NCBI GenBank assembly: GCA_934155625.1
Contig: CAKPHD010000001.1
Coordinates: 932-64,931, forward strand
Length of the DNA: 64,000 nucleotides
Direction of reading: 5' to 3'
Source of the DNA: an uncultured Clostridia bacterium
GTDB lineage: Bacteria; Bacillota; Clostridia; TANB77; CAG-508
The notes beneath the pieces were generated by a model. The model worked only from the letters and a program-made list of their open reading frames with translations, made no database searches and was not told the DNA's origin. This document shows, in pieces, positions 546-55,581 of this stretch. How positions within the stretch are numbered: the first letter of the stretch is position 1; each line of letters starts with the position of its first letter. The position numbers and the translations under genes were made by a program.

Positions 546-2072
546 CTAATAAAGCACAATACGAAAACCAACATAATCACCATAGTAATTAAGATTATCA
601 TTAGAACGTATACTTGCTGGAAATTCATCTCCACCAAGCATATATCTTCCTCCACGTTTACTTGTAGGGCGAACAGAATCTAAAGTATATTCAAGTGTCC
701 ACTCCCACATATTTCCTGCTAAATCATATATTCCTTGCTTTTTAAACTCTTCACTTGCTCCTGTTGATAATAATATACCTTTATTTGCGACTTTTTTTCC
801 GTATGCCCCACTTGTCCATTTTCCTAATGCTACCGTATTCCAGTCATATACTGCATATTTTGAATCTTTATTTGTTATATTCCATGCATTATTACTATAA
901 TTTCCCCATGTAGTACTATTTGAATTCAAATCTTCTTTTTTATTACCTTTCGCCTCTAAATATTTCATTACCAAATCCCATTGTATTCCAAAGATTAAGC
1001 CGCTTGTATAATTTCCTGACTCCATATTGCTTGCTAATGTCTGTGCTTGTCTACATGTTACAAAATTGTATGGATATACATTTTGTTTTATTACTGGTAT
1101 TTCGGTTGGTTCTGTATCTATTGAACCTGATGTTCTAGAAGTATCTTCTATTCCTGTTTCATACTTTCCAACATAAAATCCTTTATTAACATATATGCTT
1201 TTTAACATTCTTTTCTTTAGTTTATAATATTCTTCGCTTGTTAAGCCTGTCATTGTATCAGAATAATATTCATCTTTATAGTTTGTTCCATTTCTATAAT
1301 CATTTGTATATGTGTGTAAATCTGTTTCTATTGCTGTATATTCATTTTCTGTAAATTCTGTTATATTTAGTCCTGCTGTTGGATATACTTCATCTGTTTT
1401 TGGTACTTCTACCCATACATATTGATTTCCTGTACTATCTTCTATTGTTAGTCCATTATCTAAATTTGTTCCGTTTACTTGTTTAAATCCTTTTGGTAAA
1501 TATGTTCCTGCTGTTGTTTTATTACTTGATACTGTTGTTGAACCTCCGTTTATTTCTTCTCCTGGTTGCTTTGGCTCTGCTGTTATGCTTACACCTATAT
1601 TTGATTTTAAATCTTCTTTTGTTTCGTCTATTGGTGTTTTTAATAATTTTATTGTAATTGTTAAGGACGTTTCTTCACCAGCTTTTAATGTTGTTTTATC
1701 TAATTTACTTATTACCTCAAAATAATCACTATTTGAACTTGTAGCTTCTGCTGTTAAGTCTGATGACAAATCTTGGCTTTGATTTTTTATTGTATATGTT
1801 GCAGTTGCAATGTCTCCTTTTGCACTTAAGCCTGAAACTTCTATTGTTCCTTCTGTCTTTTTGCTTGCATTTATTGTCGCTGTTGTTGTTCCCTTTCCTC
1901 CTGTTGTTGGTGTTCCTGTAAATTCTACTACAAAATTAGCTTGACTTGCTTCTGATTTTGCTGTTCCATTTATATTTAATGTTACATTTGTTATTGCAGC
2001 ATACCCCACAGCTACAAGTATTATCGCTAGTAACACTATTCCTCCAACTACTTTGTTGTTCGCTCTTCTCAT
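546..2072 (-). CDS. Secreted FGE-sulfatase-domain protein (SUMF1/EgtB/PvdO-type C-terminal domain) fused to a TasA/camelysin-like N-terminal domain with a SipW-cognate-type signal peptide.
   Basis: C-terminal motifs GNMWEWT, RGG..., YVGFRIVLY. N-terminal hydrophobic segment followed by AAITNVTLNINGT. GGAGGG RBS upstream. The middle region is shared with ORF 30287..31927. Confidence 0.75.
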   Translation of the reverse strand: MRRANNKVVGGIVLLAIILVAVGYAAITNVTLNINGTAKSEASQANFVVEFTGTPTTGGKGTTTATINASKKTEGTIEVSGLSAKGDIATATYTIKNQSQDLSSDLTAEATSSNSDYFEVISKLDKTTLKAGEETSLTITIKLLKTPIDETKEDLKSNIGVSITAEPKQPGEEINGGSTTVSSNKTTAGTYLPKGFKQVNGTNLDNGLTIEDSTGNQYVWVEVPKTDEVYPTAGLNITEFTENEYTAIETDLHTYTNDYRNGTNYKDEYYSDTMTGLTSEEYYKLKKRMLKSIYVNKGFYVGKYETGIEDTSRTSGSIDTEPTEIPVIKQNVYPYNFVTCRQAQTLASNMESGNYTSGLIFGIQWDLVMKYLEAKGNKKEDLNSNSTTWGNYSNNAWNITNKDSKYAVYDWNTVALGKWTSGAYGKKVANKGILLSTGASEEFKKQGIYDLAGNMWEWTLEYTLDSVRPTSKRGGRYMLGGDEFPASIRSNDNLNYYGDYVGFRIVLY

Positions 2073-2328: not shown

Positions 2329-2468
2329 GTGATTTTTTGTCGAAATATTATTCATTAAATTTTGATAATTTTTAAAGAGCTTAATAATTTATAAGCAAAA
2401 AGCTATCACTTTAGCCAGTGATAGCTTTTCCATTTGTCAATAATTTTTATTTCATTTTCTCTTTAATT
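2329..2468. repeat. 140-bp direct repeat, copy B. This is the native mutS 3' end plus terminator.
   Basis: About 97% identical to 95-234. Confidence 0.8.
2396..2431 (-). terminator. Rho-independent terminator of mutS: hairpin agctatcact...agtgatagct followed by a T-run on the minus strand.
   Basis: Perfect 10-bp inverted repeat with flanking A/T runs. A duplicate lies at 165-200. Confidence 0.6.
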
Positions 2469-5086
2469 CTAACCAAAGTATTAAGAGCATCAATAGGAGT
2501 AAGTTCATTCAAATCAACCTTATCAATCTCATGAGCAATCTCAGCCAATTTAAAATTAAACATATCAAATTGTCCCTCAACGACCTTCTTATTTTCCTTC
2601 TCTTGTTTCTTACCAGAAATCATACTTTTTCTTTCCAAGCTTGTTAAAATCTCATCCGCTCTTTTGGTAACAACCTTTGGAACACCTGCAAGACGAGCAA
2701 CGTGGATACCATAACTTTCATCTGTTCCACCTTCAACAATCTTTCTTAAAAAGATGATATCTTCGCCCTTTTCTTTTACTGCAATTGAATAATTTTTTAT
2801 ACCTTCTTGTTTATCTGCAAGTTCTATTAATTCATGATAATGTGTTGCAAATAATGTTTTAGCACCACATTTTTCTTTATTTGCAATATATTCTGCAACG
2901 GCCCATGCAATAGAAAGGCCATCATATGTTGAAGTTCCTCTTCCTATTTCATCTAATATAACTAAACTGTTTTCTGTTGCTTCTTTTAGGATAGTTGCAA
3001 CTTCCATCATTTCTACCATAAATGTACTTTGTCCCATACTTAAATCGTCAGATGCCCCAACTCTTGTAAAGATTTTGTCTACTACTCCGATTTGTGCCTC
3101 TGTTGCTGGTACAAAGCTTCCAACTTGTGCCATTAATGTAATTAGTGCTACTTGCCTCATATATGTAGATTTACCTGCCATATTAGGTCCTGTAATTATT
3201 GCTAATCTATCTCCTTCTTTGTCAAGATATGTATCATTTGGTACAAAGTTTCCGCTTCCTATCATTTTCTCAATTACTGGATGTCTGCCTTCTTTAATGT
3301 TAATAATTCCATCATCTTTTACAACAGGCATACAATAATTCATATCTTCCGCTACTTGCGCAAATGAAGCTAAAACATCTAGTGTTGATACTACATTTGC
3401 TGTTTTTTGCAATCTTTTTATATTTTTAGCAATTTCTGTTCTTATTTCTACAAATGCATTATATTCAAGGTTTACAACCTTTTCCTCAGCACCTAAAATT
3501 TGATTTTCAATTGTTTTTAATTCTTCTGTTATATATCTTTCTCCTGTTGTTAGTGTTTGCTTTCTAATAAATCTTTCAGGTACTTGTGATACAAATGATT
3601 TTGAAACTTCAATATAATATCCAAATACTTTGTTATACCCAACTTTTAAAGTTTTAATTCCAGTCTTTTCTTTTTCATCTGCTTCTAGTTTTGCAAGCCA
3701 AGTCTTTCCTTCTGTAGAAGCTCTTTTTAATGTATCTATTTCTTCGTCATATCCTAGTTTAATTATTCCACCATCTTTTATTGTCATAGGAGGATCTTCT
3801 ACAATTGATTTTTCTATTAATGCAAATACATCTTTTAATTCATCCAAGTTTTCATATAATTCTTTTAATTTATGTGATTGACACATTTCTAAAACACTTT
3901 TTACTTCTGGTAATCTTTCTAGTGAATTTTTTAGTGTTATCATATCTCTTGCATTTGCATTACCATATGTCATTTTTCCTGCAAGACGTTCTATATCATA
4001 TACTTTTTTTAGTGTATCTGTAATTTCTCCTCTAAGCATCATATTGTCTTTTAGTTCTTTTACAGCATCTAATCTTTCTTGAATGTCTTTAACTTCCAAA
4101 AGAGGATCATTTAACCATCTTCTTAACAAACGTCCTCCCATAGATGTTGATGTTTTATCTAACACCCAAAGCAATGTTCCTTTTTTGCTTTTATCTCTCA
4201 TCTTTTCTGTTATCTCTAAGTTTCTTCTTGCATTGATATCTAATGCCATATATTTTGACAAATTATAAATTGTTATTGTGTTTATATGTTCTAGACTTGT
4301 CATTTGAGTTTCATTTAAATACTCTAACAATGCATTTATTGATTTTACTGCTAATGGCTTTTCTTTTAGATTTGTTACTTCTCTTTTATTTTCAATTATA
4401 TTGTAATCTAATGATAAGTTTCCAACATCATCTGTAAAGAATTTATCACTAAATCTACTCATATACATAGAAAATCTTTCACGTATTTTATCCATTTCTT
4501 CTTGGCATTCAAACATCATTGAATTTGCTATTATTTCTGATGGTGCAAATCTTGCTATTTCATCTAATAATAGTGCAAAGTTGTTTTCACTCTTGATTTC
4601 ACTACTATAAAATTCTCCTGTTGAAATATCACATACGCTTATTCCAAAGTAAATTCCACTTTTGCAAATACTCATTATATAATTGTTTTTCTTTTCTTCT
4701 AGTAAATTGCTTTCTACTATTGTTCCAGGAGTAAGGATTCTTATTACCCCTCTTTTTACGATTCCTTTTGCTGTTTTAGGATCTTCTAATTGTTCACAAA
4801 TAGCAACTTTATATCCTTTTTCTATTAATTTTTCTGCATACACTTCTGCTGCATGATGTGGAATTCCTGCCATTGGTGCTCTTTCTGGTAATCCACAATC
4901 TTTTCCTGTTAGTGTTATTTCTAGCTCTCTTGCAGCTATTAATGCATCTTCAAAAAACATTTCGTAAAAATCACCTAATCTGTAAAATAATATGCAATCT
5001 TTATTTGCTTCTTTTGTTTCTATATATTTTTGCATCATTGGTGATATTACTGATCTATCTTCAATTTCTGCTATTGTTTGTGCCAT
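2447..5086 (-). CDS. mutS: DNA mismatch repair protein MutS
   Basis: 879 aa with an N-terminal mismatch-binding domain, Walker A GPNMAGKST, and the typical MutS C-terminus. Confidence 0.92.
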   Translation of the reverse strand: MAQTIAEIEDRSVISPMMQKYIETKEANKDCILFYRLGDFYEMFFEDALIAARELEITLTGKDCGLPERAPMAGIPHHAAEVYAEKLIEKGYKVAICEQLEDPKTAKGIVKRGVIRILTPGTIVESNLLEEKKNNYIMSICKSGIYFGISVCDISTGEFYSSEIKSENNFALLLDEIARFAPSEIIANSMMFECQEEMDKIRERFSMYMSRFSDKFFTDDVGNLSLDYNIIENKREVTNLKEKPLAVKSINALLEYLNETQMTSLEHINTITIYNLSKYMALDINARRNLEITEKMRDKSKKGTLLWVLDKTSTSMGGRLLRRWLNDPLLEVKDIQERLDAVKELKDNMMLRGEITDTLKKVYDIERLAGKMTYGNANARDMITLKNSLERLPEVKSVLEMCQSHKLKELYENLDELKDVFALIEKSIVEDPPMTIKDGGIIKLGYDEEIDTLKRASTEGKTWLAKLEADEKEKTGIKTLKVGYNKVFGYYIEVSKSFVSQVPERFIRKQTLTTGERYITEELKTIENQILGAEEKVVNLEYNAFVEIRTEIAKNIKRLQKTANVVSTLDVLASFAQVAEDMNYCMPVVKDDGIINIKEGRHPVIEKMIGSGNFVPNDTYLDKEGDRLAIITGPNMAGKSTYMRQVALITLMAQVGSFVPATEAQIGVVDKIFTRVGASDDLSMGQSTFMVEMMEVATILKEATENSLVILDEIGRGTSTYDGLSIAWAVAEYIANKEKCGAKTLFATHYHELIELADKQEGIKNYSIAVKEKGEDIIFLRKIVEGGTDESYGIHVARLAGVPKVVTKRADEILTSLERKSMISGKKQEKENKKVVEGQFDMFNFKLAEIAHEIDKVDLNELTPIDALNTLVRIKEKMK

Positions 5087-14721: not shown

Positions 14722-14860
14722 AATAACACCTCCTATTTCCTTTTCTCCTTATACCGAGCCACAATAATAGGTGTTTTTTATTGCGCTAAGTTTAAGGAAC
14801 ATTTTTTTACATAACTATTGTACTATACTTTACATTAAAAATCAAGCATTTCTTGAAAAT

Positions 14861-15010
14861 TTTTGGTACTTTTGGGACCGGTTCTCTGCCGTCACATTTT
14901 TGGTACTTTTGGGACCGGTTCTCTGCCGTCACATTTTTGGTACCGTTGGGACCGGTTCTCTGCCGTCACATTTTTGGTACCGTTAGGACCGGTTCTTAAC
15001 CGTATCATTT
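14861..15010. repeat. Tandem array of 4 units of a 37-bp repeat, tttttggtac(tt/cg)t(t/g)gggaccggttct(ctgcc/taacc)gtcaca. No spacers.
   Basis: Read directly. Member of a dispersed family with 9 sites in the window. Confidence 0.85.
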
Positions 15011-15781: not shown

Positions 15782-15812
15782 TTTTCCCTCCTATTTCTTC
15801 ATTTAATTTTTA

Positions 15813-15920
15813 TTGTACTTTTGGGACCGGTTCTTAACCGTCACATTTTTGGTACCGTTGGGACCGGTTCTCTGCCGTCACATTTTTGGTACCGTTGGGA
15901 CCGGTTCTTATCGGTACACT
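15813..15920. repeat. Tandem array of 3 units of the 37-bp repeat. It overlaps the last codons of accA.
   Basis: Same unit as 14861-15010, in the same orientation. Confidence 0.85.
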
Positions 15921-30286: not shown

Positions 30287-31927
30287 TTAATAAAGTGAAA
30301 CCCTGAAACCGACGTAAGCTCCGCAATAGTCCGTACCTCCGTCGTAACGGTAGACTACTGAAAACGTGCTGCCATAGAGAGCGTAATCGCCACCTCGACT
30401 AACACAAGGACTGTTTGAATAAGAAGTATATTCAAGTGTCCATTCATCTACATTTCCTGCTATATCATATATTTCTTTTTTATTAAATGTTTCACTTGCT
30501 CCTGTTGATAATAATATCCTTGAATCTGAAGCTTTTGTTCCATATGCTCCATTTGTCCATCCTGAGCCATTTGGTGCATATTTAGAATTTGCATTTGTTA
30601 TATTCCATAAATTATTACTGTAATTTCCCCAATTTGTACTATTCGTCTTTAAATCTGCCTGTGCTGTTCCTTTTGTCTCTAAATATTTCAATACTAAATC
30701 CCATTGCACTCCAAACATTAAACTACTTGTATAATTTCCAGATTCCATATTACTTGCTAATGTTTGGGCTTGACTACATGTTACATTATTATATGGATAT
30801 GCATTTTGCTTTATTACTGGTATTTCTGTTGGTTTTGTTGATGATGAACCAGATGTTTTTGGTGAATTTTCTATTCCTGTTTCATATTTTCCTACATAAA
30901 ATCCTCCATTTTGATATACACTTTTTAACATCTTTTGTTTTAGCTCTGTATATTGTGTACTTGTTAATCCTGTTGTTGCATCTGAATAATATTCATCTTT
31001 GTATCCTGATTCTCTATAATCATTTGTATATGTGTGTAAATCTGTTTCTATTTTTGTATATTCATCAGCATTAAATGTTGTTATGTTTAGTCCTGCTGTT
31101 GGATATACTTCTGCTGTTTTTGGCACTTCTACCCACACATATTGATTTCCTTTACTATCTTGTATTGTTAATCCATTTTCTAATGTTGTTCCTTCTACTT
31201 GTGTAAAACCTGTTGGTAAATATGTTCCTCCTGTTGTTACATTATTCCCTTTAATCTCTTCATTTGCCTGATAAGAATCAATACTTAAAGTTATACTCAT
31301 TGCAGAAGTAGCATCTGGATTATCCATAAAATACTTGCCTACAATATATCCCCATTTCGAATCTAGCTCATCATTATCACCCGGCCAGTTAGCAGTCACC
31401 TTTAGGTATGCTCTATCTTTAGCAGCAACCTGTAAAGAATGTTCTATCTTCAAAGTAAATGGAAACTTTGTTAAATCATTTATTATTTCTCCTTTAGCTA
31501 TTTGCTCACCTGTTTCCTTATTCGTTTCAGTTGTAGGTTCAGATATATTTATATAATTTTCGGTCGATGGCTGTTTACCATCATGCACTACTTCATATGA
31601 CACTCCCGCAATCGTTATTGCTTGAATACTATAACTTAAATCAACTAATGCTTCACCATTATTTAAAATATCAACAGTTACAGTTTGCTCTTGCATCTGT
31701 GGATACAATGTTGGAAATTCAATTCCTATTGGATTTTCCTTTTTTTCATCCCCAATATAATATTCCATGTCCCATGCAGCAACATGCATATTTAAATGTG
31801 AATTTAAAACTTTGGTATATGCAAACCACGCAAATGTCGTCATTATAAACGCAAAAATGATTATTATATATTTTCGGGTTGTGTTCTTTTTATTAGCTTT
31901 TCTATACTTACGTAATAAATTTTTCAC
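30287..31927 (-). CDS. Secreted FGE-sulfatase-domain protein with a TasA-like N-terminal domain and AWF-type SipW-cognate signal peptide. GTG start. Paralogue of 546..2072; the N-terminal domain is a paralogue of 44114..44812.
   Basis: TTFAWFAYT signal. The N-terminal domain aligns with 44114..44812 (AWDMEYYIGDEK vs PWDVTYYVEDKE). C-terminal motifs RGGDYALYG...YVGFRVSLY. Confidence 0.75.
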   Translation of the reverse strand: MKNLLRKYRKANKKNTTRKYIIIIFAFIMTTFAWFAYTKVLNSHLNMHVAAWDMEYYIGDEKKENPIGIEFPTLYPQMQEQTVTVDILNNGEALVDLSYSIQAITIAGVSYEVVHDGKQPSTENYINISEPTTETNKETGEQIAKGEIINDLTKFPFTLKIEHSLQVAAKDRAYLKVTANWPGDNDELDSKWGYIVGKYFMDNPDATSAMSITLSIDSYQANEEIKGNNVTTGGTYLPTGFTQVEGTTLENGLTIQDSKGNQYVWVEVPKTAEVYPTAGLNITTFNADEYTKIETDLHTYTNDYRESGYKDEYYSDATTGLTSTQYTELKQKMLKSVYQNGGFYVGKYETGIENSPKTSGSSSTKPTEIPVIKQNAYPYNNVTCSQAQTLASNMESGNYTSSLMFGVQWDLVLKYLETKGTAQADLKTNSTNWGNYSNNLWNITNANSKYAPNGSGWTNGAYGTKASDSRILLSTGASETFNKKEIYDIAGNVDEWTLEYTSYSNSPCVSRGGDYALYGSTFSVVYRYDGGTDYCGAYVGFRVSLY

Positions 31928-32123: not shown

Positions 32124-32405
32124 ATGGAGACAACAACAAAACACCCACTAGACTACTCAGTAGTAGATTTAACCTCGACCGTACTTGTAACTCGGTCTAA
32201 GAGAGGCTTTGAGGTACAGCATTTAGAATCTGGAAAAGCTGAATATATCAGTTCCACAAAATTAGAAGGTTCTTGTTTCAAGTACCCTACCGATTTTATA
32301 CGAGCATTTTCGAAATGTTTTCCAGAAGCCAAAAATATCATGTTGTCAACATCAGCAAATGACTATATGATAGAGCTACTGACATTCAATAGAATTGACA
32401 GCTAG
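32124..32405 (+). CDS. Hypothetical protein (93 aa)
   Basis: Strong AAGGAGG RBS. A terminator lies downstream. Confidence 0.5.
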   Translation: METTTKHPLDYSVVDLTSTVLVTRSKRGFEVQHLESGKAEYISSTKLEGSCFKYPTDFIRAFSKCFPEAKNIMLSTSANDYMIELLTFNRIDS

Positions 32406-33228: not shown

Positions 33229-33380
33229 GGTACCGTTGGGACCGGTTCTTAAAAGTAACAAAAAAGTACCGCAGAGAACCGGTCCCAAAAGTAACAAAAA
33301 AAGGTACCGCAGAGAACCGGTCCCAAAAGTAACAAAAAGTACCGCAGAGAACCGGTCCCAAAAGTAACAAAAAAAGTACC
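33229..33380. repeat. Array of 4 units of the dispersed 37-bp repeat (one forward, three reverse)
   Basis: Read directly. Confidence 0.85.
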
Positions 33381-33381
33381 A

Positions 33382-34299
33382 CTATGATATACTTGTAAAT
33401 AAAACTATTCCTATAGACTGAATAATAAACAAATTCATCATATTAGACATAAGCAAATTATTAGTAGCTTCGATAACACCAATCATATCATTATTAGAAT
33501 TTTTATGATGGCGCTGAGCCTCAAAAAATGTTATCAGTTCTGGGATGCTTGTAACAAATCCAAGTACTATTCCAATAATTACTTCTGGTACATTAAATCT
33601 TCTACACAAAACATCTAATGTATTTCCTAATAAATCTCCTATTACAAATAAAAGTATTCCTGTTACCAACAAAATCATAATGTCTCTCACAAGCTTTAAC
33701 CTTTTATTTGAATTCACCTTTTGTTCCATATGCTTCGCAGACTTAGTCTTTCGCTTGTTTCCTCTTTTTCCAGCGTCACTGTTCACTTCTACATTTTCTT
33801 CATTTTTGTTTTCAATTGCAACTTCATCTTCGTTCAAATACAATGCATGAGCATTATTGTTGATTTTCTTGCACCCTAAATAAAGTATAATTAATAACGG
33901 AACCATTGCTAATTGAAACTCACTTTCTACTGCACTAAACATTAATGGTAAAAGAATAGTTATAACAACTAAAATTATATCAACCCTAATAGCCTGATTT
34001 TTCAACGCTTTTTGATTTTTATTTAGTGCAATTGCTCCTGCATATTGAATTAGATTTATTACATTTGAACTTAATACATTATAAATGCTTGCTCCTAGCA
34101 ATCCTTTCATGCTGGCAGCTCCTATTGTTAGTAATTCCGGAACTGATGTTGCTATTCCTGCAATATCTCCTACTGTTTTAGGTTTTAAATTCAAATTTTC
34201 TGCTAAACTTCTTAATGCTCTGACCAATATATATTTAGATATCAACACTATCAATCCTGAATAAACTACAAATTGAACTATTTCCAATAATAATTCCAT
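33382..34299 (-). CDS. CaCA-family cation/Ca2+ exchanger membrane protein with a charged central loop
   Basis: Two GIATSxPEL alpha-repeat motifs. Polytopic. Confidence 0.65.
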   Translation of the reverse strand: MELLLEIVQFVVYSGLIVLISKYILVRALRSLAENLNLKPKTVGDIAGIATSVPELLTIGAASMKGLLGASIYNVLSSNVINLIQYAGAIALNKNQKALKNQAIRVDIILVVITILLPLMFSAVESEFQLAMVPLLIILYLGCKKINNNAHALYLNEDEVAIENKNEENVEVNSDAGKRGNKRKTKSAKHMEQKVNSNKRLKLVRDIMILLVTGILLFVIGDLLGNTLDVLCRRFNVPEVIIGIVLGFVTSIPELITFFEAQRHHKNSNNDMIGVIEATNNLLMSNMMNLFIIQSIGIVLFTSIS

Positions 34300-34534: not shown

Positions 34535-35824
34535 ATGATAGATATTAAATTAATTAGAGAAAATCCAGAATTGGTAAAAGAAAATATTAGAAAAAAATTT
34601 CAAGATCAAAAATTAGTTCTTGTTGATGAAGTTTTAGAATTAGACACAAAAAATAGAGAAGCAAAACTAAATGGAGACAATCTTAGATCTGACAGAAAAA
34701 AGACTAGTGAACAAATAGGACAGCTTATGAAAGCTGGTCAAAAAGATGAGGCTGAAAAATTAAAACAAGAAGTTCAAAAAATAAATTCAGCACTTGAAGA
34801 AAATGAAGCACTTGAAGAAAAATATTCAAACGAAATTAAAGAAAGAATGATGAAAATTCCAAATATAATGGATGCAAGTGTTCCAATTGGAAAAGATGAC
34901 AGTGAAAATGTAGAAGTTCAAAAATTTGGAGAACCAACAAAACCAGATTATGAAATTCCTTATCATGCAGATATATTAGATACATTTAACGGTCTAGACA
35001 AAGACAGTGCTGGAAGAACTAGTGGAATGGGCTTCTATTATTTAGTTGGCGATATTGCAAGATTACACGAAGCAATGCTTGCTTATGCTAGAGATTATAT
35101 GATAAATAATGGATTCACATATTGCATTCCTCCATTCATGATTCGTTCAGACGTTGTTACAGGTGTAATGAGCTTTGAAGAAATGGATGCAATGATGTAT
35201 AAAATTGAAAATGAAGATTTATACTTAATCGGTACATCTGAACACTCAATGATAGGAAGATTCAAAGATCAAATTATCAAAAAATCTGATTTACCAATAA
35301 CAATGACATCATATTCTCCTTGTTTTAGAAAAGAAATTGGTTCTCATGGATTAGAAGAAAGAGGCTTATACCGTGTACATCAATTTGAAAAACAAGAAAT
35401 GATAGTTCTTTGTGAACCAGAAGATTCTATGAATTGGTATAATAAAATGTGGAAATTAAGTGTTGACTTATTTAGAAATTTCAATGTTCCTGTAAGACAA
35501 CTTGACTGTTGCTCTGGAGATTTAGCAGATTTAAAAGTTAAATCATGTGATATAGAAGCTTGGAGCCCACGTCAACAAAAATATTTTGAAGTTTGCAGTT
35601 GTTCTACTTTAGGAGATGCTCAAGCTAGACGTTTAGGAATTCGTGCTAAAGGTGAAAAAGGAAATTATTATGTCCATACTTTAAATAATACTGTTGTTGC
35701 TACACCTAGAGGCTTAATTGCAGTTATTGAAAATAACTATAATGAAGATGGAACTATCACTGTTCCAGAAGTTTTAAGACCTTATATGGGTGGAACAGCT
35801 AAATTAGTACCTGTAAAAAAATAA
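34535..35824 (+). CDS. serS: Serine--tRNA ligase
   Basis: N-terminal coiled-coil arm and class II motifs. RBS AGGAAGGAA. Start taken at MIDIKL. Confidence 0.85.
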   Translation: MIDIKLIRENPELVKENIRKKFQDQKLVLVDEVLELDTKNREAKLNGDNLRSDRKKTSEQIGQLMKAGQKDEAEKLKQEVQKINSALEENEALEEKYSNEIKERMMKIPNIMDASVPIGKDDSENVEVQKFGEPTKPDYEIPYHADILDTFNGLDKDSAGRTSGMGFYYLVGDIARLHEAMLAYARDYMINNGFTYCIPPFMIRSDVVTGVMSFEEMDAMMYKIENEDLYLIGTSEHSMIGRFKDQIIKKSDLPITMTSYSPCFRKEIGSHGLEERGLYRVHQFEKQEMIVLCEPEDSMNWYNKMWKLSVDLFRNFNVPVRQLDCCSGDLADLKVKSCDIEAWSPRQQKYFEVCSCSTLGDAQARRLGIRAKGEKGNYYVHTLNNTVVATPRGLIAVIENNYNEDGTITVPEVLRPYMGGTAKLVPVKK

Positions 35825-35825
35825 T

Positions 35826-35856
35826 GGTACTTTTGGGACCGGTTCTTATCGGTACC
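35826..35856. repeat. Single unit of the dispersed repeat between serS and engB
   Basis: ggtacttttgggaccggttcttatcggtacc. Confidence 0.8.
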
Positions 35857-35880
35857 TTAAATTAGAAAGGATTTATAATT

Positions 35881-41811: not shown

Positions 41812-43089
41812 TTAATTATTATCAGTACCAGCTTTGCTTAGTCCTACGTTAATTGTCATACCTCCACCAAGTGAAGCGTAGTTAATACAGTCAACGTCTT
41901 GTCCTTCTAGCCATACATACATTCTCATTTTTACATATTTACCAGGTGCTATAGAGAAATTAGAAGTACCATCTTTAGCACTTTTTAAATCAGTTACATT
42001 TTCAACTCCTGCATTAGTTGTTTGAACTGTATTTTGTTTTGTTAATCCATTTACAGTTGTTGTTGCTGATTTACAATCATAAATATCTTTGATACTTCCT
42101 ACTAAATCAGTTCTTCCATCTGTATCTTTTAGTTCTTTTGCAGTAAGTGATTTTGATGTTAAAGCATATGTTGGTAATGCTGTATCAGCAGCAAATTTTC
42201 CATTTGTAATTCCTGTTGGAGCTGTATTTCCTGTTGCAGCATCAAATGATAATCTGTTATTATTTGTTACTATGTAATCAACGTGTGCAGCATATTTTGT
42301 TACAGTTTGCTCTGTTTTTTCTTCTGCACCACTAGCATTTGGCTCCCATATAGTAGCATCTGTTATGTTCTTTCCTGATACTGCATTTAAAATTGCTTGT
42401 TGGCTTGAATCTGTAGCACCAACATCTACTGCTGAAGTATCATCAAATAATGCAAAAGCTACTCTGAATGAGTTTTGAACACCTGTTGATTCTTTTGATT
42501 TTGTTTTTAAATCAATACTTGAATTGGGTTCTAGTCTAAGATTGTCTCTAGTTCCTGCTGTAATAGCTGATGCAGCTGTAGAGTTCATTAAGAATAAATC
42601 AATAGCGAAATATCCTTTATCATTTATTGTTATATCTGCATCTGTAGCAATATTCTTAATACCAGTTAATTTTATACCTGATGTGTTTGTTCCTCTGTAC
42701 ATATTAAAGTCTTGTAATCCTATACCTTCTGTCTCTTGTGCTGTTGTTGAAACTGGTAATAATTCACTTGGAACTGCATTTTCACGTCCAGCATATGGTT
42801 TCTTTAAAGATAATTTGTCAGCATCTTGTTTTCCAACATTTTCTGTTGCAAAATATGATTCCATTCCTGTGTCTGACAAATCAATTTCGTTTGCCCAGTT
42901 CTTTCCGTCTAATGATACTTGTAGACCTTCTGCTACATTTACTTTACCATCTAGTCCACTTAATGTTACGTTTTTCTGCGTAGAGAACCACGCATATGTT
43001 GATACTATCAATAAGATAGCTGTGAATGCTACTAATAAAATTAGAGCATTTAATCTTTTTCTTGAGTCTTTTTGATTTTTTTCTCTCAT
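41812..43089 (-). CDS. TasA/camelysin-superfamily secreted protein with SipW-cognate signal peptide (STYAWFS), 425 aa
   Basis: N-terminal TM followed by the AWF motif. The C-terminal strand YVWLEGQD resembles TasA FEATQWNG. Confidence 0.65.
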   Translation of the reverse strand: MREKNQKDSRKRLNALILLVAFTAILLIVSTYAWFSTQKNVTLSGLDGKVNVAEGLQVSLDGKNWANEIDLSDTGMESYFATENVGKQDADKLSLKKPYAGRENAVPSELLPVSTTAQETEGIGLQDFNMYRGTNTSGIKLTGIKNIATDADITINDKGYFAIDLFLMNSTAASAITAGTRDNLRLEPNSSIDLKTKSKESTGVQNSFRVAFALFDDTSAVDVGATDSSQQAILNAVSGKNITDATIWEPNASGAEEKTEQTVTKYAAHVDYIVTNNNRLSFDAATGNTAPTGITNGKFAADTALPTYALTSKSLTAKELKDTDGRTDLVGSIKDIYDCKSATTTVNGLTKQNTVQTTNAGVENVTDLKSAKDGTSNFSIAPGKYVKMRMYVWLEGQDVDCINYASLGGGMTINVGLSKAGTDNN

Positions 43090-43182: not shown

Positions 43183-43968
43183 TTATCTTCTGTTTTGTGA
43201 AGTATCATTTTCTTGTAATATATGTTCTTCAGTAAGAGTCATATGCATTTTTATTTCTCCACCAATCAAATCATCTTTGCATTCTGGATCATCTCCCTCT
43301 ATCCAAACAACAACAGTCCATTTATCAATGTCACCTACTTTAAAGTTTTCTGAGAAGTCTAGCATAACAGTATCATCATCCTTGAATGACACTGTATCTG
43401 GCTCAGGCTGTCCTGTTTCTCTGTTGTTTTTTGCATAAATAACTTTTTCACCATTTTTAAAGACCATAACTCTAATTGCTTCATCTACATTTTTTACTAC
43501 ATCATCTATCTTTATGGTTGTCCAATAATTTATAGTATCTTGTCCCATATTTTCTGCATAGAATGTATAAGCTATGTAGTTTCTGCCATTATGTGAACCA
43601 TCACCTTCATTGTCAATATTTTCTGGTAACCAGTTAACAGATATATCAGTAAAAAAGTCTATATCTTTTGATCTTAGGAATGTTCTAGTATATTTATTAG
43701 CTTGATCTTCATATATTACCAATCCACTCTCTCGTCCATATTCACTGTCAAGTGTTACTGTAAAATTTTCGCCTCTATAGAACATTGATAAAATAATATA
43801 TATATTTATCATAAATAATACTATTATTCCAAGCAATACTCTAAAAACTACTTGCCTAGTCTTTTTTCGTTTTTCTTTTTTTGCCTTTTCTTCTAGTTTT
43901 TGACCGGCTGTTGTTGCATCAATTTGTTCTTCAAGTGTTGGTTCGTTTTTTGTTGTATCATTCGCCAT
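43183..43968 (-). CDS. Single-pass membrane protein with a TasA-like C-terminal domain (VVVWIEGDD)
   Basis: Cytoplasmic K/E-rich N-terminus, one TM segment. The C-terminus is homologous to 41812..43089. Confidence 0.5.
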   Translation of the reverse strand: MANDTTKNEPTLEEQIDATTAGQKLEEKAKKEKRKKTRQVVFRVLLGIIVLFMINIYIILSMFYRGENFTVTLDSEYGRESGLVIYEDQANKYTRTFLRSKDIDFFTDISVNWLPENIDNEGDGSHNGRNYIAYTFYAENMGQDTINYWTTIKIDDVVKNVDEAIRVMVFKNGEKVIYAKNNRETGQPEPDTVSFKDDDTVMLDFSENFKVGDIDKWTVVVWIEGDDPECKDDLIGGEIKMHMTLTEEHILQENDTSQNRR

Positions 43969-44113: not shown

Positions 44114-44812
44114 TTACTTATTTTTTCGTATTATTGAACTTGTTATTTTTACAACAATTTCTATTGCTTTAGAAGAATCATTTTCTTCATCTTTATAAAA
44201 TTGGTAAGCATCTTTACCAAATTTTGTATCTAATATATCTTTAGCTAGATTTTCGTCATCATTTCCTGTTCCTTGATATTTCCAGCTTACATTAAATTTA
44301 ACAGTAGCTAAAGCATCTGGAGTTGTTGTATCATCTACATATTCCCCATCAATTCTTGTTTTATCGTATGTATAACTAACATTAAATGGATAAACAGTAT
44401 CATCTGCAAACAAATTAACTGTGTTACCATTAGTTTGGATTCCTCCGTCTTCTTTTAACTGATCTAACACTTCTTTTCCAAATACTTTAACAGAAGTTAT
44501 TTCACACTCAATTTTTGAACTTGTTGTGCTTAAATTACGTATGTGTACTGTATCTTCTCTATTTGGCATTCCTGGGTATAATTCATCAATTGTAAAAGTG
44601 TAATCTTCATCTAAAACTTCTTTATCCTCAACATAATATGTAACATCCCACGGTGTTATATCAGCTTCTAAGCCATTTAATTTTACTGCTTCGTTTATAT
44701 TAAACCATGCATAGGTATTTACTATTAATATTACAGAAAATATCATTACTAATCTAACCCTAGACGCAACACTTCGCTTTTTCGCTCGTCTGAATTCACG
44801 TAATATATTCAT
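44114..44812 (-). CDS. TasA/camelysin-like secreted protein with SipW-cognate signal (NTYAWFN)
   Basis: FNVSWKYQGTGND C-terminal motif. Paralogue of the N-terminal domain of 30287..31927. Confidence 0.65.
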   Translation of the reverse strand: MNILREFRRAKKRSVASRVRLVMIFSVILIVNTYAWFNINEAVKLNGLEADITPWDVTYYVEDKEVLDEDYTFTIDELYPGMPNREDTVHIRNLSTTSSKIECEITSVKVFGKEVLDQLKEDGGIQTNGNTVNLFADDTVYPFNVSYTYDKTRIDGEYVDDTTTPDALATVKFNVSWKYQGTGNDDENLAKDILDTKFGKDAYQFYKDEENDSSKAIEIVVKITSSIIRKNK

Positions 44813-44846: not shown

Positions 44847-45569
44847 TTATTCTTCCTCTGTATCATCATCGTCTTCTATTTCTTCGTCTTCTTCGTATTC
44901 GTATTCGTCATCATCATCTTCTTCATCATCATTATCTTCATCTTCGGCTTCAATCTCATCTTCGTCCTCATCATAATCTATATACTTACTAGCTTCATTC
45001 AATTTTTGAATTTTCTTCTTTTTTCTTGGACTTCTAAATGCAATAAACACATTTAAAGATAATACAATAATGATAACAAATACAGAATATATATTAGTTG
45101 CTAATTTATATAAAATAGTTAAAATATCTGATTGATACTTTACAACACCATATATTTGGTCTGCCTTAATTTGAGGATCTTCTACACTACTGCTATGCAA
45201 ACCTTTGGCATGAAAATTCAAATTTCCATTTGCATCAGTATCAATTCCAACAACACTATGCATGATTATCTTTCCATTATAATCACCATATTTTCCAAGA
45301 TATACTATATCATCTCCAACTTTTATTTTTTTAGGATCAGTCTCTTTACTAATAACAACTTCTCCAACATCATATTCCGGCTCCATACTTCCTGTAATTA
45401 CCCTGAACATCCTATATCCGGCAATTGATTTATTATTAGCTGTAACTTTTTGCATTATTATTACTGCAGCAACTATCAAGCACAATATAACAAGTATTTG
45501 ATATAATATCTTGAGTATTATTTTTATTATTCCTTTTTTATTACTCTTTGGCTTAATATTCCCCCACAT
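44847..45569 (-). CDS. sipW: Signal peptidase I, SipW/S26B type, with a 45-aa poly-acidic C-terminal tail
   Basis: ITGSMEP Ser motif. MHSVVGI His region. C-terminal TM, then a D/E-rich tail. Confidence 0.75.
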   Translation of the reverse strand: MWGNIKPKSNKKGIIKIILKILYQILVILCLIVAAVIIMQKVTANNKSIAGYRMFRVITGSMEPEYDVGEVVISKETDPKKIKVGDDIVYLGKYGDYNGKIIMHSVVGIDTDANGNLNFHAKGLHSSSVEDPQIKADQIYGVVKYQSDILTILYKLATNIYSVFVIIIVLSLNVFIAFRSPRKKKKIQKLNEASKYIDYDEDEDEIEAEDEDNDDEEDDDDEYEYEEDEEIEDDDDTEEE

Positions 45570-45584: not shown

Positions 45585-46193
45585 CTACACATTGTAATTA
45601 TCTCTCAGTTTCTTTAGCTCATATTTTTTTCTTTTTATTTTTCTAGTATTTTTCTGTTTATCTTTTAGACTAACTAATACATATAAAATTATTACAAAAA
45701 TCAATATATTTATAAATCCTCTTAAATTCTGTATATAATGCACTACTTTTCCGAGTTTTGGAATTGTAAATAAGACTTTTCCATAGACATTTTTAAATTC
45801 TACAGGATCTTTATCTTGTACATCATTATTATCTCCTTTTGTAATAAATTTCAAATTTTCATTTTCTTTAGTAATTTCAAATATTCTATGAGAAATTACT
45901 CTATCACCTTGTTTAAAAGTTATAATTTCGCCCTTTTTCAATTCGTCTAATTTACTTTTTTGAACAATTGCTAAATCATCTTTATAAAATGTTGGCTCCA
46001 TACTTTCTGAAACTATATTAAACATATAAATTCCTAAAACATGAGTATCTTCTTCAAAAGATAATATTAGATTAATTATAAAAAGTATTATTAAACTAAC
46101 CAGTATTATACACTTAAAAACTTTTTTTGTCATCTTTTTATTTTTTATTTTATTAGAAATTTTATCTACATCATATTCCAATTTTGCTCTCAC
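45585..46193 (-). CDS. Signal peptidase I, SipW/S26B type (second copy)
   Basis: VSESMEP, VISHRIF, C-terminal TM. Confidence 0.7.
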   Translation of the reverse strand: MRAKLEYDVDKISNKIKNKKMTKKVFKCIILVSLIILFIINLILSFEEDTHVLGIYMFNIVSESMEPTFYKDDLAIVQKSKLDELKKGEIITFKQGDRVISHRIFEITKENENLKFITKGDNNDVQDKDPVEFKNVYGKVLFTIPKLGKVVHYIQNLRGFINILIFVIILYVLVSLKDKQKNTRKIKRKKYELKKLRDNYNV

Positions 46194-47985: not shown

Positions 47986-48624
47986 TTATTGATTTATATA
48001 TTGTTTAAAGTTTAAAGTTGCCCTGTAATTTAAAAGTGTATGCAACTCTTTTTCGTCTGTACTAGCTTCACCTTTGAACTCTGTATCAGCCTTATTGTTC
48101 ATAGTGCTACCTTCACCATCATTCCATCTAAATAGAACTTTTACTTCACGCTTTTTTTCACCTGAACTATTTAGTTCTGTTGTTGGATCTATTACTCCTT
48201 TAATTTCTTTAGTTTCTGTTACTGTAGATTTATCGCCATCCACAATTTCATATCCATATACCTCAAAATCTGCCAATTTAGTATTATTTAATTGTTCTAT
48301 AGAAAAGTCATATTCAAATGCTAAATCTACATATGTATAATCAATTACTAAGTCAAAATATCCAGTTCTGCCTGGAACTAAAGTATTGTTGTTGTTCATA
48401 TTTTCATCTTCAACAATAACTGGTTGAACAACTTCACTAAGTGTTGATTCCTCATGTATTACATGGTCATTTACTTTAATTAACCATCTTTTAATATGTG
48501 TATCATAAGTTGTATCAACTTTTTCAAAATATCTCGCATATGTTCTTTGTATTGATATAAATGTAATCAATAATGAGATAATACATAAAACTTGTAAAAT
48601 TCTCAACTTATTCTTTTTCTTCAT
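47986..48624 (-). CDS. TasA/camelysin-like secreted protein (212 aa), paralogue of 54112..54753
   Basis: Signal peptide followed by TYARYF. VLFRWNDGEGS resembles TasA FEATQWNG. Confidence 0.65.
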   Translation of the reverse strand: MKKKNKLRILQVLCIISLLITFISIQRTYARYFEKVDTTYDTHIKRWLIKVNDHVIHEESTLSEVVQPVIVEDENMNNNNTLVPGRTGYFDLVIDYTYVDLAFEYDFSIEQLNNTKLADFEVYGYEIVDGDKSTVTETKEIKGVIDPTTELNSSGEKKREVKVLFRWNDGEGSTMNNKADTEFKGEASTDEKELHTLLNYRATLNFKQYINQ

Positions 48625-49198
48625 TCATATGTCTCCCTTTAAATATTCTAAATCCTAGGTATATAGTTAATGGCAATATTCCACAAAAGTAAAATACATA
48701 TTTATTATTTAGTAGCATACAAATTAAAGATAAAATATATAATTTGGTTTGAACTACACCATTAATTTGACCTCCATATACAACAGGGTCTTCCAAATTA
48801 TTCGCAATACCTTTTGTATGGAATGCTTTTTGACCATCTATTTCTTCAATATCAATGACTCTGTGGGTTATAAGTAAACCTTTTACAGAACTAGCCTCAC
48901 CATGATATGTTACATCATCTCCAACTTTTATTTGGTTAATATCTTTTTCTTTTACTAAGATAACATCTCCAACATTATATTTGGGAATCATACTTCCTGT
49001 TTGAACTCTGAATATTCTATATCCAAAAAATGATTCTTTATTATTTGTTACTTTTTGTACAACTATTATTATACAAATCAAAATTATTATAATTGTTATT
49101 ATTCTTGATATAATACTTTTAATTATGTGTAATGAACGATTTTTTTTTAACGTACTTTTTGCTTCTTTTTGCTCGTTTTCTTCTCTTTTGTTTTCCAT
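48608..49198 (-). CDS. Signal peptidase I, SipW/S26B type (third copy)
   Basis: QTGSMIP, ITHRVIDI. Confidence 0.7.
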   Translation of the reverse strand: MENKREENEQKEAKSTLKKNRSLHIIKSIISRIITIIIILICIIIVVQKVTNNKESFFGYRIFRVQTGSMIPKYNVGDVILVKEKDINQIKVGDDVTYHGEASSVKGLLITHRVIDIEEIDGQKAFHTKGIANNLEDPVVYGGQINGVVQTKLYILSLICMLLNNKYVFYFCGILPLTIYLGFRIFKGRHMNEEKE

Positions 49199-50325: not shown

Positions 50326-50354
50326 TTTTTATATCCTTTCTACAAGCTTTTATT

Positions 50355-51908: not shown

Positions 51909-51911
51909 ATT

Positions 51912-53036: not shown

Positions 53037-53620
53037 TATTCTACAATTTGTTTTGCATTTATGTCTAATTTTATATATTCCATTATATCTGCATATTCTT
53101 CATATAAATAATTTTCTTTTGGAAATTTTACTTTTATAACAAAGCTATCAGTTTCATCTACTCCTTGTTTCATTTGGTTCTCATCTAATGATATCTTTTT
53201 ATAATATGTTCCATCATCATCTGTAATTATTTCTTGTTGAGCATTTAAAATTTGGCCATTTTTTACAATTTGATATTCTAATGGTAAATTAGTTGTCATT
53301 GTAAGTGTAATTCCATATTCTAAATCAGTTTCTGCTCTTTTACTAATATTTCCATCTTCTTCTTTTTTAAAATTTGATACAGAAAATGTATAATCAAATG
53401 AATTATCTGATGGATATACATCTTTTATTACAATTTTTCCTGTTTTAAAGTCATCATTTACTATCCAAAACGCAACATCTAGGTCTTTATCTGATGTTGC
53501 TGTTGTTTCATATTTAGCTAATGTTCTTCTTATAAGAATTATTGCTATTATTATTATCGCTATTAATAAAAGTACTAAAAGACTTTTTTTAACTTTCTTT
53601 TTATCAAACATTTTCATCAC
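53036..53620 (-). CDS. TasA/camelysin-like secreted protein (194 aa)
   Basis: Signal peptide followed by TLAKYET. Confidence 0.6.
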   Translation of the reverse strand: MMKMFDKKKVKKSLLVLLLIAIIIIAIILIRRTLAKYETTATSDKDLDVAFWIVNDDFKTGKIVIKDVYPSDNSFDYTFSVSNFKKEEDGNISKRAETDLEYGITLTMTTNLPLEYQIVKNGQILNAQQEIITDDDGTYYKKISLDENQMKQGVDETDSFVIKVKFPKENYLYEEYADIMEYIKLDINAKQIVE

Positions 53621-54128
53621 CTGTTTTCTCTTTGTATGAAACCAGTAATATAAATAAAATAACTGTTATACTAATTGGTATTATTACATGTACATCTGAA
53701 AATACTTTTTTCCATATTTCAACATTATTCACAATAAAAACGGTTCTACCAATAACTTCATCTTTTTTTATAGGCTCATCATATGTATTATTAAAGTCAC
53801 CTTTTGCGATTATGGTATCTCCATTTATATTTACTATTCTATGTGTAACTAACACATTTTCTTTTTGGTATGTTATAATATCATTTTCCTTTATTTCATC
53901 ACCTATTTTGATTATTACAATATCACCTTTTTCGATTGTTGGTGACATACTTCCAGTTTCTGTGCTAAGTACTGAATAGCCGAATATATCAATATATTGC
54001 TTGTGTTGTACATTTAATTGAATAAATCCCCAAATAGCAATAATGGCAATGATTCCTAATATAAATATTATTAAATTTACTATAATTTTTTTTATAACTT
54101 CAAATACTTTATTATGCTTCATTGCCAA
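53604..54128 (-). CDS. Signal peptidase I, SipW/S26B type (fourth copy)
   Basis: ETGSMSP, VTHRIVNI, C-terminal TM. Confidence 0.7.
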   Translation of the reverse strand: MAMKHNKVFEVIKKIIVNLIIFILGIIAIIAIWGFIQLNVQHKQYIDIFGYSVLSTETGSMSPTIEKGDIVIIKIGDEIKENDIITYQKENVLVTHRIVNINGDTIIAKGDFNNTYDEPIKKDEVIGRTVFIVNNVEIWKKVFSDVHVIIPISITVILFILLVSYKEKTGDENV

Positions 54129-54753: not shown

Positions 54754-55581
54754 TTATTTTTCCTCTTTTGCAGATTTTGTTGTTTTGGTTGTTTTTGTTG
54801 TAGCCTTTTTAGGCTTTGCTGTAGTTGCTGATTTTGTAGTTGTTGTCTTTTTTGCAGTTGTCTTTTTTGCTGATGTTTTTGAAGTTGTACTTGCTTTTTT
54901 TGTAGTTGCTGTTTTTGATGTAGGAGCTTTCTTTGTTGTAGTTTTCTTTGCTGGAGCTTTTTTTACAACTTTTACTTCTTGAACCTCTTCTTCATCTTCT
55001 GTTTCTTCGTCTTCAGAATCATCTTCATATTCTACTTCTACAGCTTCTTTTTCACGTTTCTTTTTCTTATCTCCAAGATATTTAATTTCCATTACTAAAT
55101 CAAATACTTCTTGTAAGAATAGTAATAAAGAAACAATTACTACGCAGAACAAGTATCCCCATTTAGATTCTAATAAGTTTAAAATATATCCCCATCCTTC
55201 TATAACTACTGTATCACTTGTTTTTCCTATAAAATAGTCATTTGCATAACTTTCTTCATTTTCAACAGCATAAATTATATGGCTTCCTTGTTGTGTTTTT
55301 TCTTGTAAAGTTCTACTTACAACTTCATATTGTTGGCTATTAATTACTTTATATAGTAATATTTCATCTCCACTTTTAACATTTCTGTCATTTGTTTTTT
55401 TGATTAATAATATAGATCCTTGTTTATATTCAGGTTCTAATGAATCATCTTTTACTATATAAACAGTATATCCTCCTAATTCACTATTATTATAGTCATT
55501 ATATGACAATAACAATACTGTAACTGTAATTGCAATTATGGCATATAACACAAATAATATACTACCTAATGCTTTTTTCAT
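54754..55581 (-). CDS. SipW-like S26B paralogue lacking the catalytic His (VVSRT in place of VTHRV), with acidic and K/T-rich C-terminal tails. Probable pseudo-peptidase.
   Basis: DDSLEP Ser box present, His box substituted, C-terminal low-complexity KKTT repeats. Confidence 0.55.
   Translation of the reverse strand: MKKALGSILFVLYAIIAITVTVLLLSYNDYNNSELGGYTVYIVKDDSLEPEYKQGSILLIKKTNDRNVKSGDEILLYKVINSQQYEVVSRTLQEKTQQGSHIIYAVENEESYANDYFIGKTSDTVVIEGWGYILNLLESKWGYLFCVVIVSLLLFLQEVFDLVMEIKYLGDKKKKREKEAVEVEYEDDSEDEETEDEEEVQEVKVVKKAPAKKTTTKKAPTSKTATTKKASTTSKTSAKKTTAKKTTTTKSATTAKPKKATTKTTKTTKSAKEEK

Follow-up and report, generated by a model that had tools for sequence, protein, structure and literature searches.

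FGE2 of an uncultured Clostridia bacterium: a probable surface adhesin with a fibre-subunit-like stalk and a retroelement-type variable region

Gene FGE2 and its domains

The stretch of DNA considered here, called below the window, comprises 64,000 nucleotides of an uncultured Clostridia bacterium (GTDB lineage Bacteria; Bacillota; Clostridia; TANB77; CAG-508) and corresponds to positions 932 to 64,931 of contig CAKPHD010000001.1 in the GenBank assembly GCA_934155625.1. Its gene of interest is FGE2 (FGE, formylglycine-generating enzyme), located beside uvrA. The product consists of a putative signal anchor, an N-terminal domain related to a small protein of a SipW signal peptidase locus in the same window, and a C-terminal head whose last codons have the make-up of a variable region (VR) of a diversity-generating retroelement (DGR). 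FGE2 is probably a modular, filament-associated adhesin. The window itself holds the variable-region signature and a conserved element behind the stop codon, and the template and reverse transcriptase (RT) of such a system are seen in related genomes only. The coordinates are collected in Table 1.

The exact FGE2 protein was recovered on metagenome contigs with its neighbours unchanged, and it has more than 5000 homologues, full-length orthologues at 60-98% identity among them. In the AlphaFold2 (AF2) model one helix spans residues 4-44 and the N-domain has a mean pLDDT (predicted local distance difference test) of 79.8; the model of the head failed (pLDDT 42.6).

Table 1. Positions of the features discussed (window positions unless a related locus is named)
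Feature	Position	Strand	Basis or remark
FGE2, whole gene, 546 aa, GTG start	30287..31927	-	open reading frame (ORF) call
FGE2 N-terminal signal anchor, residues 1-36 (basic stretch, hydrophobic helix, TTFAWFAY)	31820..31927	-	alignments
FGE2 N-domain, residues 37-232, beta-sandwich and one helix, paralogue of 232-aa protein	31232..31819	-	BLASTP, hhalign, AF2
FGE2 C-terminal head, residues 233-546, FGE-sulfatase-like, inferred C-type lectin fold	30290..31231	-	profile matches
DGR-type variable region	30295..30424	-	homologous to template repeats of relatives
Hypervariable core R511-R542	30302..30397	-	orthologue alignment
Conserved post-stop element, ~56 nt	30230..30286	-	candidate DGR target-recognition element
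232-aa paralogue of FGE2 N-domain, subunit gene of SipW locus	44114..44812	-	BLASTP, hhalign
261-aa gene, downstream of 232-aa gene	43183..43968	-	
425-aa gene, downstream of 261-aa gene	41812..43089	-	
archaeal-type/SipW signal peptidase I gene	44847..45569	-	TIGR02228, 64.0 bits
archaeal-type/SipW signal peptidase I gene	45585..46193	-	TIGR02228, 108.7 bits
Third sipW gene	48608..49198	-	TIGR02228, 84.8 bits
212-aa secreted protein, partner of third sipW	47986..48624	-	ORF
sipW-like genes with 194-aa and 213-aa partners	53604..54128 and 54754..55581		Peptidase_S24/S26 matches only
FGE1, 508 aa, same head on VAVGYAAITNV-type N-domain	546..2072	-	paralogue alignment
OB-type ORF of DGR cassettes in relatives	L178 5634-5870; L112 1957-2190; L185 5026-5268; L187 5348-5581		
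Intergenic repeat, ~37 nt	14823-15048, 15772-15960, 20106-20216, 33266-33411, 35818-35872, 52962-53052, 57153-57246	both	

Paralogy of the N-terminal domain with a SipW-locus protein

It had been proposed in an earlier note on this DNA, made from its letters and reading frames alone, that the N-terminal domain of FGE2 is a paralogue of the 232-aa protein, and the alignment proved to be real. In a pairwise BLASTP comparison residues 3-218 of FGE2 match residues 2-225 of the 232-aa protein with 25% identity (50.4 bits, E=1e-11), and all three motif pairs quoted in that note fall within this alignment. When FGE2 is searched against the window's 222 ORFs with 60 aa or more, it finds the 232-aa protein with E=1.8e-10, the next best one having E=0.47. 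The single-sequence score is owed in large part to the N-terminal segment with its basic stretch, transmembrane helix and (F/Y)AWF motif, and the pairwise E-value falls to 0.019 once residues 1-48 are removed. When the profiles of both families (74 and 114 distinct sequences) are compared by hhalign with the signal peptides left out, the domains are again significantly alike (97.5% probability, E=6.7e-12, 147 columns). Since the match persists without the signal peptides, the globular domains are homologous, and judging from these alignments the N-domain of FGE2 is a true paralogue of the 232-aa protein. The latter belongs to a conserved family of 268 homologues which has neither a Pfam domain nor a name in the source records.

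The SipW locus and its relation to FGE2

The window contains five SipW-type peptidases, three of them above the TIGR02228 cut-off of 51.85 bits, and at least seven putative substrates. The 232-aa gene is placed directly downstream of two sipW genes. The same signal/(F/Y)AWF pattern is common to FGE2 (TTFAWFAY), the 232-aa protein (NTYAWFNI) and the 425-aa protein (STYAWFST), and the motif (T)(F/Y)AWF after a hydrophobic segment resembles GT(F/Y/W)AxF, the motif of the SipW-substrate class. The N-terminal segment of the 425-aa protein is also related to that of the 232-aa family by hhalign (E=5.5e-8), and the SipW-cognate signal model TIGR04088 scores 13.9 bits on it, below the cut-off of 19.

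In four relatives (L145, L153, L158 and L166) the FGE2 orthologue comes directly after the gene series sipW-212-539-sipW-sipW-232-261-425 on the same strand, with only selfish-looking inserted genes or a second 425-like gene in between, and L166 has uvrA next after it. A housekeeping block of about 10 kb parts FGE2 from the fibre locus in the window, as also in L004 and L170; in the window this block comprises a 174-aa ORF and genes for RNase J, GltX, a HAD protein, an EngB-like GTPase, SerRS (on the opposite strand), a Na/Ca exchanger and a DUF2508 protein. Because the orthologue abuts the locus in those four relatives, FGE2 is an ancestral neighbour of the SipW locus and not an insertion beside uvrA.

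The earlier note had tied both FGE fusions of the window to a TasA/SipW system. As regards SipW, the tie stands for FGE2, with its N-domain paralogy and its neighbourhood in relatives, and has to be given up for FGE1, the N-domain of which shows no detectable relation to the locus subunits compared with it. The TasA label is not borne out: the small proteins of the locus have no match in Pfam, NCBIfam or among PDB sequences, TasA included, and no match of the FGE2 N-domain to TasA or camelysin was returned by Foldseek.

Several other genes accompany the locus. Inside it, at 49201-52952 on the minus strand, three proteins are encoded, of 374 aa (with DUF2357), 517 aa (with a P-loop-like stretch, ILQGISGTGKTS) and 346 aa, the last two with no Pfam match; they could be a McrBC-like defence module, which is our guess from the DUF2357/P-loop pairing, or a fibre assembly ATPase. 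Next to the locus, at 57232-63888 on the minus strand, there is an ORF of 2218 aa with many degenerate repeats of about 25 residues ('xxIYGGxxxG') and no Pfam match, possibly a giant beta-helical surface protein. The Tad-type pilin cluster described for the TANB77 clade (PMC11680825) was considered as the same system and rejected, as TadA/CpaF ATPase and TadB/C are unmatched among the scanned ORFs. A 93-aa ORF without family match (32124..32405, plus strand), placed divergently upstream of FGE2, is kept in all relatives examined.

The variable region and the post-stop element

A nucleotide alignment of FGE2 with FGE1 showed the final ~120 nt of FGE2 to be anomalous. Their GC content is 0.47-0.52, as compared with about 0.30 for the remainder of the gene and 0.29 for the window, and codons ending in C make up 15 of the last 46 versus about 14 of the first 500. 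Among 26 full-length orthologues (62-98% identity) the protein is conserved except for the last ~35 residues. In these tails the scaffold RGGxYxxxGSxxPAxxRxxxxTTxYxxxxGFRVxLY alternates with hypervariable positions, an arrangement that, by its sequence, is typical of DGR variable regions in the FGE-type C-type lectin (CLec) fold, a fold class described previously (PMC5006420, PMC6328139).

The same conclusion is suggested by comparison with template repeats (TR) of relatives. The core of FGE2 differs from TR112 and TR178 at 25 of 38-39 adenine sites versus 12-14 of 57-58 other sites (Fisher p=1e-4 and 4e-5). Across 33 independent paralogues the entropy amounts to 1.59 bits at template-adenine sites and 0.77 bits elsewhere (p=1e-11).

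Immediately past the stop codon there is an element with the consensus GTAGnCCTGAGTCCTGTryAGCGATnnACTAGAAnGrGCTCAAaCAAAGAATTAAA. It follows 31 of the 55 GC-rich variable regions versus one of the 32 low-GC family members (p=1.5e-7), and it is kept although the downstream gene varies (uvrA, rpsB, spoIIE).

DGR cassettes in related genomes

When species-representative genomes were scanned for the head domain, 371 loci were returned from metagenome-assembled genomes labelled uncultured Clostridia, Clostridium sp. 28_12 and similar. The head is present in at least 13 copies in CAKPLQ01, at least four in the complete 1.55-Mb chromosome OV788638.1 and at least six in MNRR01. None of the first 84 loci examined gave a match in a screen for DGR RT motifs. 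In L112 a repeat encoding SNSSNPCVNRGGNYNNNGSNNPAANRNNNNTTNYNNNIGFRASL* was found 300 nt past the 3' end of a paralogue; over the full 135 nt the two differ at 24 adenine sites and at two non-adenine sites at the extreme 3' end, and in the core at 19 adenine sites and one other. Judged by these differences they are a true TR/VR pair.

A full cassette was reached by means of the back-translated template pattern on a human-gut contig (L178). It consists of bAvd (Pfam E=1e-17), an RT (RVT_1 E=3e-19, with IGNYTSQ...YMDD), the template repeat and a 78-aa OB-fold/SSB-like ORF; RTs of this type have thousands of close homologues. The template of relatives encodes ...RGGNYNNNGSNNPAANRNNNNTTNYNNNIGFR.... 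Further cassettes were found in L185-L190, with the template alleles PAA, PVA and PAS, and the order in the fullest loci (L187/L188) is target, orf142, bAvd, RT, TR and OB gene. The DGR-adjacent targets in L183/L184 and L187/L188 carry the FGE1-type N-domain. When L183 is compared with L184, or L187 with L188, the same gene bears different variable regions, including N/Y swaps at AAY codons.

The family template pattern had two matches in metagenome contigs and none in viral contigs, so there is no sign of a phage-borne cassette. In the contigs of the species-representative genomes neither the anchored template pattern nor the variable region itself was matched, the latter meaning that this strain is not the species representative in that set. 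A degenerate pattern, in which each base of the variable region was allowed to be A, was discarded because it matched only poly-A runs in viral contigs. Four further RT look-ups brought more template alleles, the exact cognate of the FGE2 region not among them. The RT match P0329 and the FGE2 orthologue P0028, both listed with a longest contig of 1,657,324 bp, may be on the same contig.

An ORF of 77-80 aa with weak OB-fold/SSB similarity stands past the template in each intact cassette examined (L178, L185/L186, L187-L190), and also past the L112 and L179 templates. Its product may be an extra accessory factor of this DGR lineage.

The head domain and the question of enzymatic function

The name FGE, used in the earlier note, is not sustained by the sequence. 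The scores for PF03781 are 17.9 bits for FGE2 and 21.7 bits for FGE1 against a gathering cut-off of 23.3, and the FGE2 match covers residues 431-542, that is profile positions 131-252 of 255. The head-domain profile finds SUMF2 (1y4j, E=1.6e-4) and, more weakly, PorK/GldK and FGE, over the last ~60 residues only. It can be imagined that the head is a formylglycine-generating or SUMF1/EgtB-type enzyme modifying fibre subunits or other secreted proteins; these profile matches to SUMF2 and FGE chains, the weak PF03781 matches on both genes and the precomputed PF03781 matches on many homologues would agree with it. The similarity is, however, below threshold and limited to the last ~60-110 residues, and the segment matching the catalytic-cysteine stretch of FGE is hypervariable among orthologues, in the manner of a DGR target. 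Templates of relatives are Asn-rich and encode no Cys pair, whereas in human and bacterial FGE the catalytic Cys pair is located in this C-terminal segment. No sulfatase was matched among the ORFs scanned against Pfam or NCBIfam. An enzyme is hence a reading to which we give hardly any credence. Weak 'FGE-sulfatase' matches on such proteins are rather an annotation trap and no sign of an enzyme. A CLec fold of the head is inferred from the same similarities.

Modularity, recombination and natural alleles

Among 66 full-length family members one head is found on four kinds of N-terminus: the FGE2 type (24 of 66), the FGE1 type (another 24), a related 'GIGYSAINSITGEI' type on long proteins and one with a type IV pilin-like signature (KGITLVALVVTIVVL...). 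As a separate observation, in L173, L162, L157, L151, L143 and L167 the CLec head with its GC-rich variable region is borne by type IV pilin- or pseudopilin-like N-termini (KGITLVALVVTIVVLLILAG), which suggests DGR-diversified pilin-like proteins in the same bacterial group.

In one related species alleles of 229 aa comprising the N-domain only occur in many assemblies at the same position (L180-L182, 6001-6690; P0249-P0257). They go back to an internal deletion by which the head was lost entirely; of the gene's 3' end only the final ~25 nt persist in front of uvrA, so the N-domain can stand alone and the head is dispensable.

Past the gene in L099 (7895-8497) stands rpsB-tsf where the window has uvrA, and the L187/L188 cassette is directly upstream of rpsB-tsf (L187, 5581-5762). 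This layout could come from a rearrangement through a shared repeat or from an assembly chimera.

Seven intergenic sites of the window, on both strands, contain short tandem arrays of a repeat of about 37 nt (core GGGACCGGTTCT), which looks like a REP/MITE-like element (repetitive extragenic palindrome, miniature inverted-repeat transposable element) of this genome.

FGE1 and the neighbourhood of repair genes

The window contains a second FGE-type gene, FGE1, which adjoins mutS (2447..5086), and uvrA (27328..30159) is directly downstream of FGE2, its identity being given by UvrA Pfam families on an identical 943-aa product. Both adjacencies reported in the earlier note are thus correct, as is the absence of uvrB beside uvrA: no uvrB was matched among the scanned window ORFs of at least 150 aa. 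The treatment of the two genes as a pair of like fusions is another matter, since they have in common only the C-terminal ~340 residues (64% identity). The N-terminal 185 residues of FGE1 (VAVGYAAITNVTLNINGT...) show no match to the 232-aa protein, and hhalign finds no relation of this domain to the 212-, 213- and 194-aa subunits. FGE1 is also devoid of the GC-rich variable region and of the post-stop element, it is followed by ordinary downstream sequence, and in comparison with the templates it has no adenine bias (p=0.3 and 0.8).

Recurrent insertion at the ends of repair operons, suggested by the earlier note, is not supported for FGE2. The position of FGE2 by uvrA is orthologous, with synteny conserved in all close relatives examined, and the family, with at least 13 copies per genome, is found beside unrelated genes such as spoIIE, rpsB and prfA. 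Only the mutS-adjacent copy bears a mark resembling insertion or duplication. FGE1 is flanked by a 146-nt direct repeat, 97% identical (94-239 and 2328-2473), which comprises the final 26 nt of mutS, the mutS terminator hairpin and about 80 nt beyond it. The repeat may mark a cassette insertion or the collapse of a tandem array. The relative L122 has a tandem pair of FGE1-type genes at its mutS locus, and these do possess GC-rich variable regions as well as the post-stop element.

Proposed model and its alternatives

It is proposed, with a probability of about 0.6, that FGE2 is a surface adhesin composed of a fibre-subunit-like stalk and a ligand-binding head that ends in a DGR-type variable region. 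The signal anchor would be cleaved near the (F/Y)AWF motif, presumably by one of the five SipW-type peptidases, and the N-domain of ~190 residues would then dock onto the SipW filament, replacing the 232-aa subunit or standing beside it, as its paralogy and conserved neighbourhood suggest. The head would be a ligand-binding module of CLec fold and its last ~35 codons the variable region. A cassette elsewhere in the chromosome, as in relatives, would make adenine-mutagenised cDNA and overwrite matching regions in dispersed paralogues, the post-stop element presumably marking the targets. Since the template cores of relatives have ~15 AAY codons, simple arithmetic would allow up to ~15^15 binding surfaces. 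Incorporation of FGE2 into a fibre is the most likely arrangement given its homology. Diversification may still occur in this strain, the template and RT being known from relatives only.

A number of results weigh against this proposal. As to the filament, TIGR04088 gave no match on FGE2 at E up to 0.1, and the model of the N-domain has no significant fold match in the PDB, TasA and pilins included. FGE2 could also be a stand-alone receptor anchored in the membrane or at the surface by its N-terminal helix, with the N-domain as a mere stalk whose likeness to the fibre subunit is one of ancestry only. The single long helix of residues 4-44 would fit such a receptor, as would the distance of 10 kb from the locus in the window; the head may moreover be the functional unit, being found on several unrelated N-modules, very long proteins included. 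On the other hand, the signal/(F/Y)AWF segment is the part best conserved in common with the 232-aa and 425-aa proteins, the orthologue comes next after the 425-aa gene in four relatives, five SipW paralogues imply many dedicated substrates, and the widespread 229-aa alleles suggest a role of the N-domain of its own. A free-standing receptor is accordingly judged rather unlikely.

As to the head, the CLec fold rests on weak hidden Markov model matches, since the AF2 model failed. The post-stop element is a candidate recognition element only, because its predicted structure is weak (a 5-bp alifold stem without covariation; DNA folds with z=-0.5 to -1.7). Pfam scans of the ORFs detected no RT or Avd in the window, and no third copy of the region or template is present in it. 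In L099 the gene is 100% identical to that of the window over its first 780 nt and then becomes mosaic, so recombination also shuffles heads. These last two points, together with the paralogues available as conversion donors in each genome, would be expected if no DGR had ever been involved and the tails had arisen by diversifying selection and gene conversion in a large paralogous family. Such an origin is very improbable in view of the adenine-specific pattern against the templates of relatives, the compositional anomaly confined to ~120 nt with its NNC codon signature, and the complete cassettes whose templates encode exactly this scaffold; 31 of the 32 occurrences of the element, too, are at GC-rich variable regions.

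Other objections concern present activity. The variable region is identical in all eight members of the 90% cluster of this strain, from several samples, while other parts of the protein vary. P0003, 83% identical overall, has nearly the same region with four substitutions, which speaks against current activity. Every template recovered departs from the FGE2 region at some non-adenine sites. The closest still shows 10 such differences in the core, including C-to-T changes that turn PAA into SVV, and over the templates of relatives the number in the core is 10-19. DGRs are also lost in this group, as in L183/L184 (5001-5990), where a shortened RT of 295 aa is joined to the final codons of the OB gene and the template repeat is gone; this dead allele is present on many contigs, and deleted cassettes are common in one related species. 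From these facts, a count of 8-10 non-adenine differences from every template recovered, and the mosaic in L099 it could be argued that FGE2 is a fossil target, its DGR lost or inactive, and that the region is now a fixed binding site subject to point mutation and recombination between paralogues. Yet the GC-rich, NNC-codon make-up has not decayed towards 29% GC and the post-stop element is intact. Template alleles vary at some of the 'non-adenine' sites (PAA, PVA, PAS), so an unsampled cognate could explain the differences, and the identity of the region in several samples may be due to a single circulating strain or to selection. We consider a fossil doubtful, and the proposal of an adhesin with a DGR-type head is preferred.

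A wider reading is put forward more tentatively than the adhesin itself, as a possibility that falls somewhat short of even odds. According to it, a chromosomal DGR acting in trans (bAvd, RT, template and OB-fold gene) would reprogram CLec heads, at least 13 per genome, on at least three filament-subunit-type modules, namely the SipW-fibre subunit paralogue, the 'GYAAITN' module and type IV pilin-like N-termini. Hypervariable adhesive tips would then be carried by several Gram-positive surface filaments of uncultured gut Clostridia.

Comparison with known systems

On the side of the stalk the comparison is with SipW-dependent fibres. As in TasA/TapA/SipW of B. subtilis and BsaA/BsaB/SipW of C. 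perfringens, SipW peptidases and small secreted proteins are encoded in an operon. Unlike TasA and camelysin, the window subunits have no sequence or fold match, and there are five sipW paralogues with at least seven putative substrates. To our knowledge there is no TasA-type system with a CLec or DGR-diversified subunit, and when the literature was searched for DGR in combination with SipW, TasA or camelysin, DGR was mentioned in none of the 10 papers listed. Beta-sandwich proteins of the TasA/BsaA type assemble by donor-strand exchange once a signal peptide with a G-T-(F/Y/W)-A-x-F-like motif has been cleaved off (PMC9674648, PMC10151520, bioRxiv 10.1101/2024.11.04.621531).

On the side of the head, the distant similarity to the FGE/SUMF1 family (PF03781) extends over the last ~110 residues (GNVxEWT...RGG...GFR), and FGE2 departs from that family by its sub-threshold score, its hypervariable catalytic-Cys segment and its lack of a sulfatase context. 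TvpA of Treponema denticola and TaqVP of Thermus are DGR variable proteins with the FGE-type C-type lectin fold. FGE2 is similar to such proteins in having its C-terminal variable region in an FGE-sulfatase-like, putatively CLec, domain, and the family has further in common with these systems the AAY-rich template, adenine-specific TR/VR differences, bAvd and RT (IGxxxSQ/YMDD), as well as one cassette serving multiple dispersed targets. It differs in that the FGE2 head sits on a SipW-subunit paralogue, that a small OB-fold/SSB-like gene follows the template, that the ~56-nt target element has no supported GC-rich hairpin and that the cassette is outside the window. The mechanism class is that of the classical DGR (PMC2408619, PMC5758913): in Bordetella phage BPP-1, adenine-mutagenised template cDNA replaces the C-terminal variable region of Mtd, a CLec receptor-binding protein (PMC2408619). 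Unlike Mtd, the targets considered here are chromosomal, multiple and cellular surface proteins, with no phage tail fibre.

A parallel is offered by the Type V pilus tip adhesins of Bacteroides (bioRxiv 10.1101/2024.11.15.621889), also from gut commensals, in which a filament-subunit-like protein has a DGR-varied CLec-type C-terminus, the genes adjoin those of anchor or stalk subunits, and some elements are active and others silent. Phylum and filament system are different, however: Type V pilins are lipoprotein precursors assembled at the outer membrane, whereas FGE2 belongs to a Gram-positive Clostridia relative with archaeal-type SipW and is known from its genes alone; sister proteins here also bear the head on type IV pilin-like N-termini. 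DGR targets of gut commensals are numerous and their cellular roles mostly obscure, the Bacteroides tip adhesin being the only worked example found in our literature search. If the proposal is true, SipW-dependent fibres of Gram-positive Clostridia would be a second, unrelated filament system with DGR-diversified heads, and this would hint that placing a reprogrammable lectin head on a filament subunit is a general strategy. The case is a concrete one, as the stalk paralogue, a putative cleavage motif, the variable positions and natural N-domain-only alleles are already defined.

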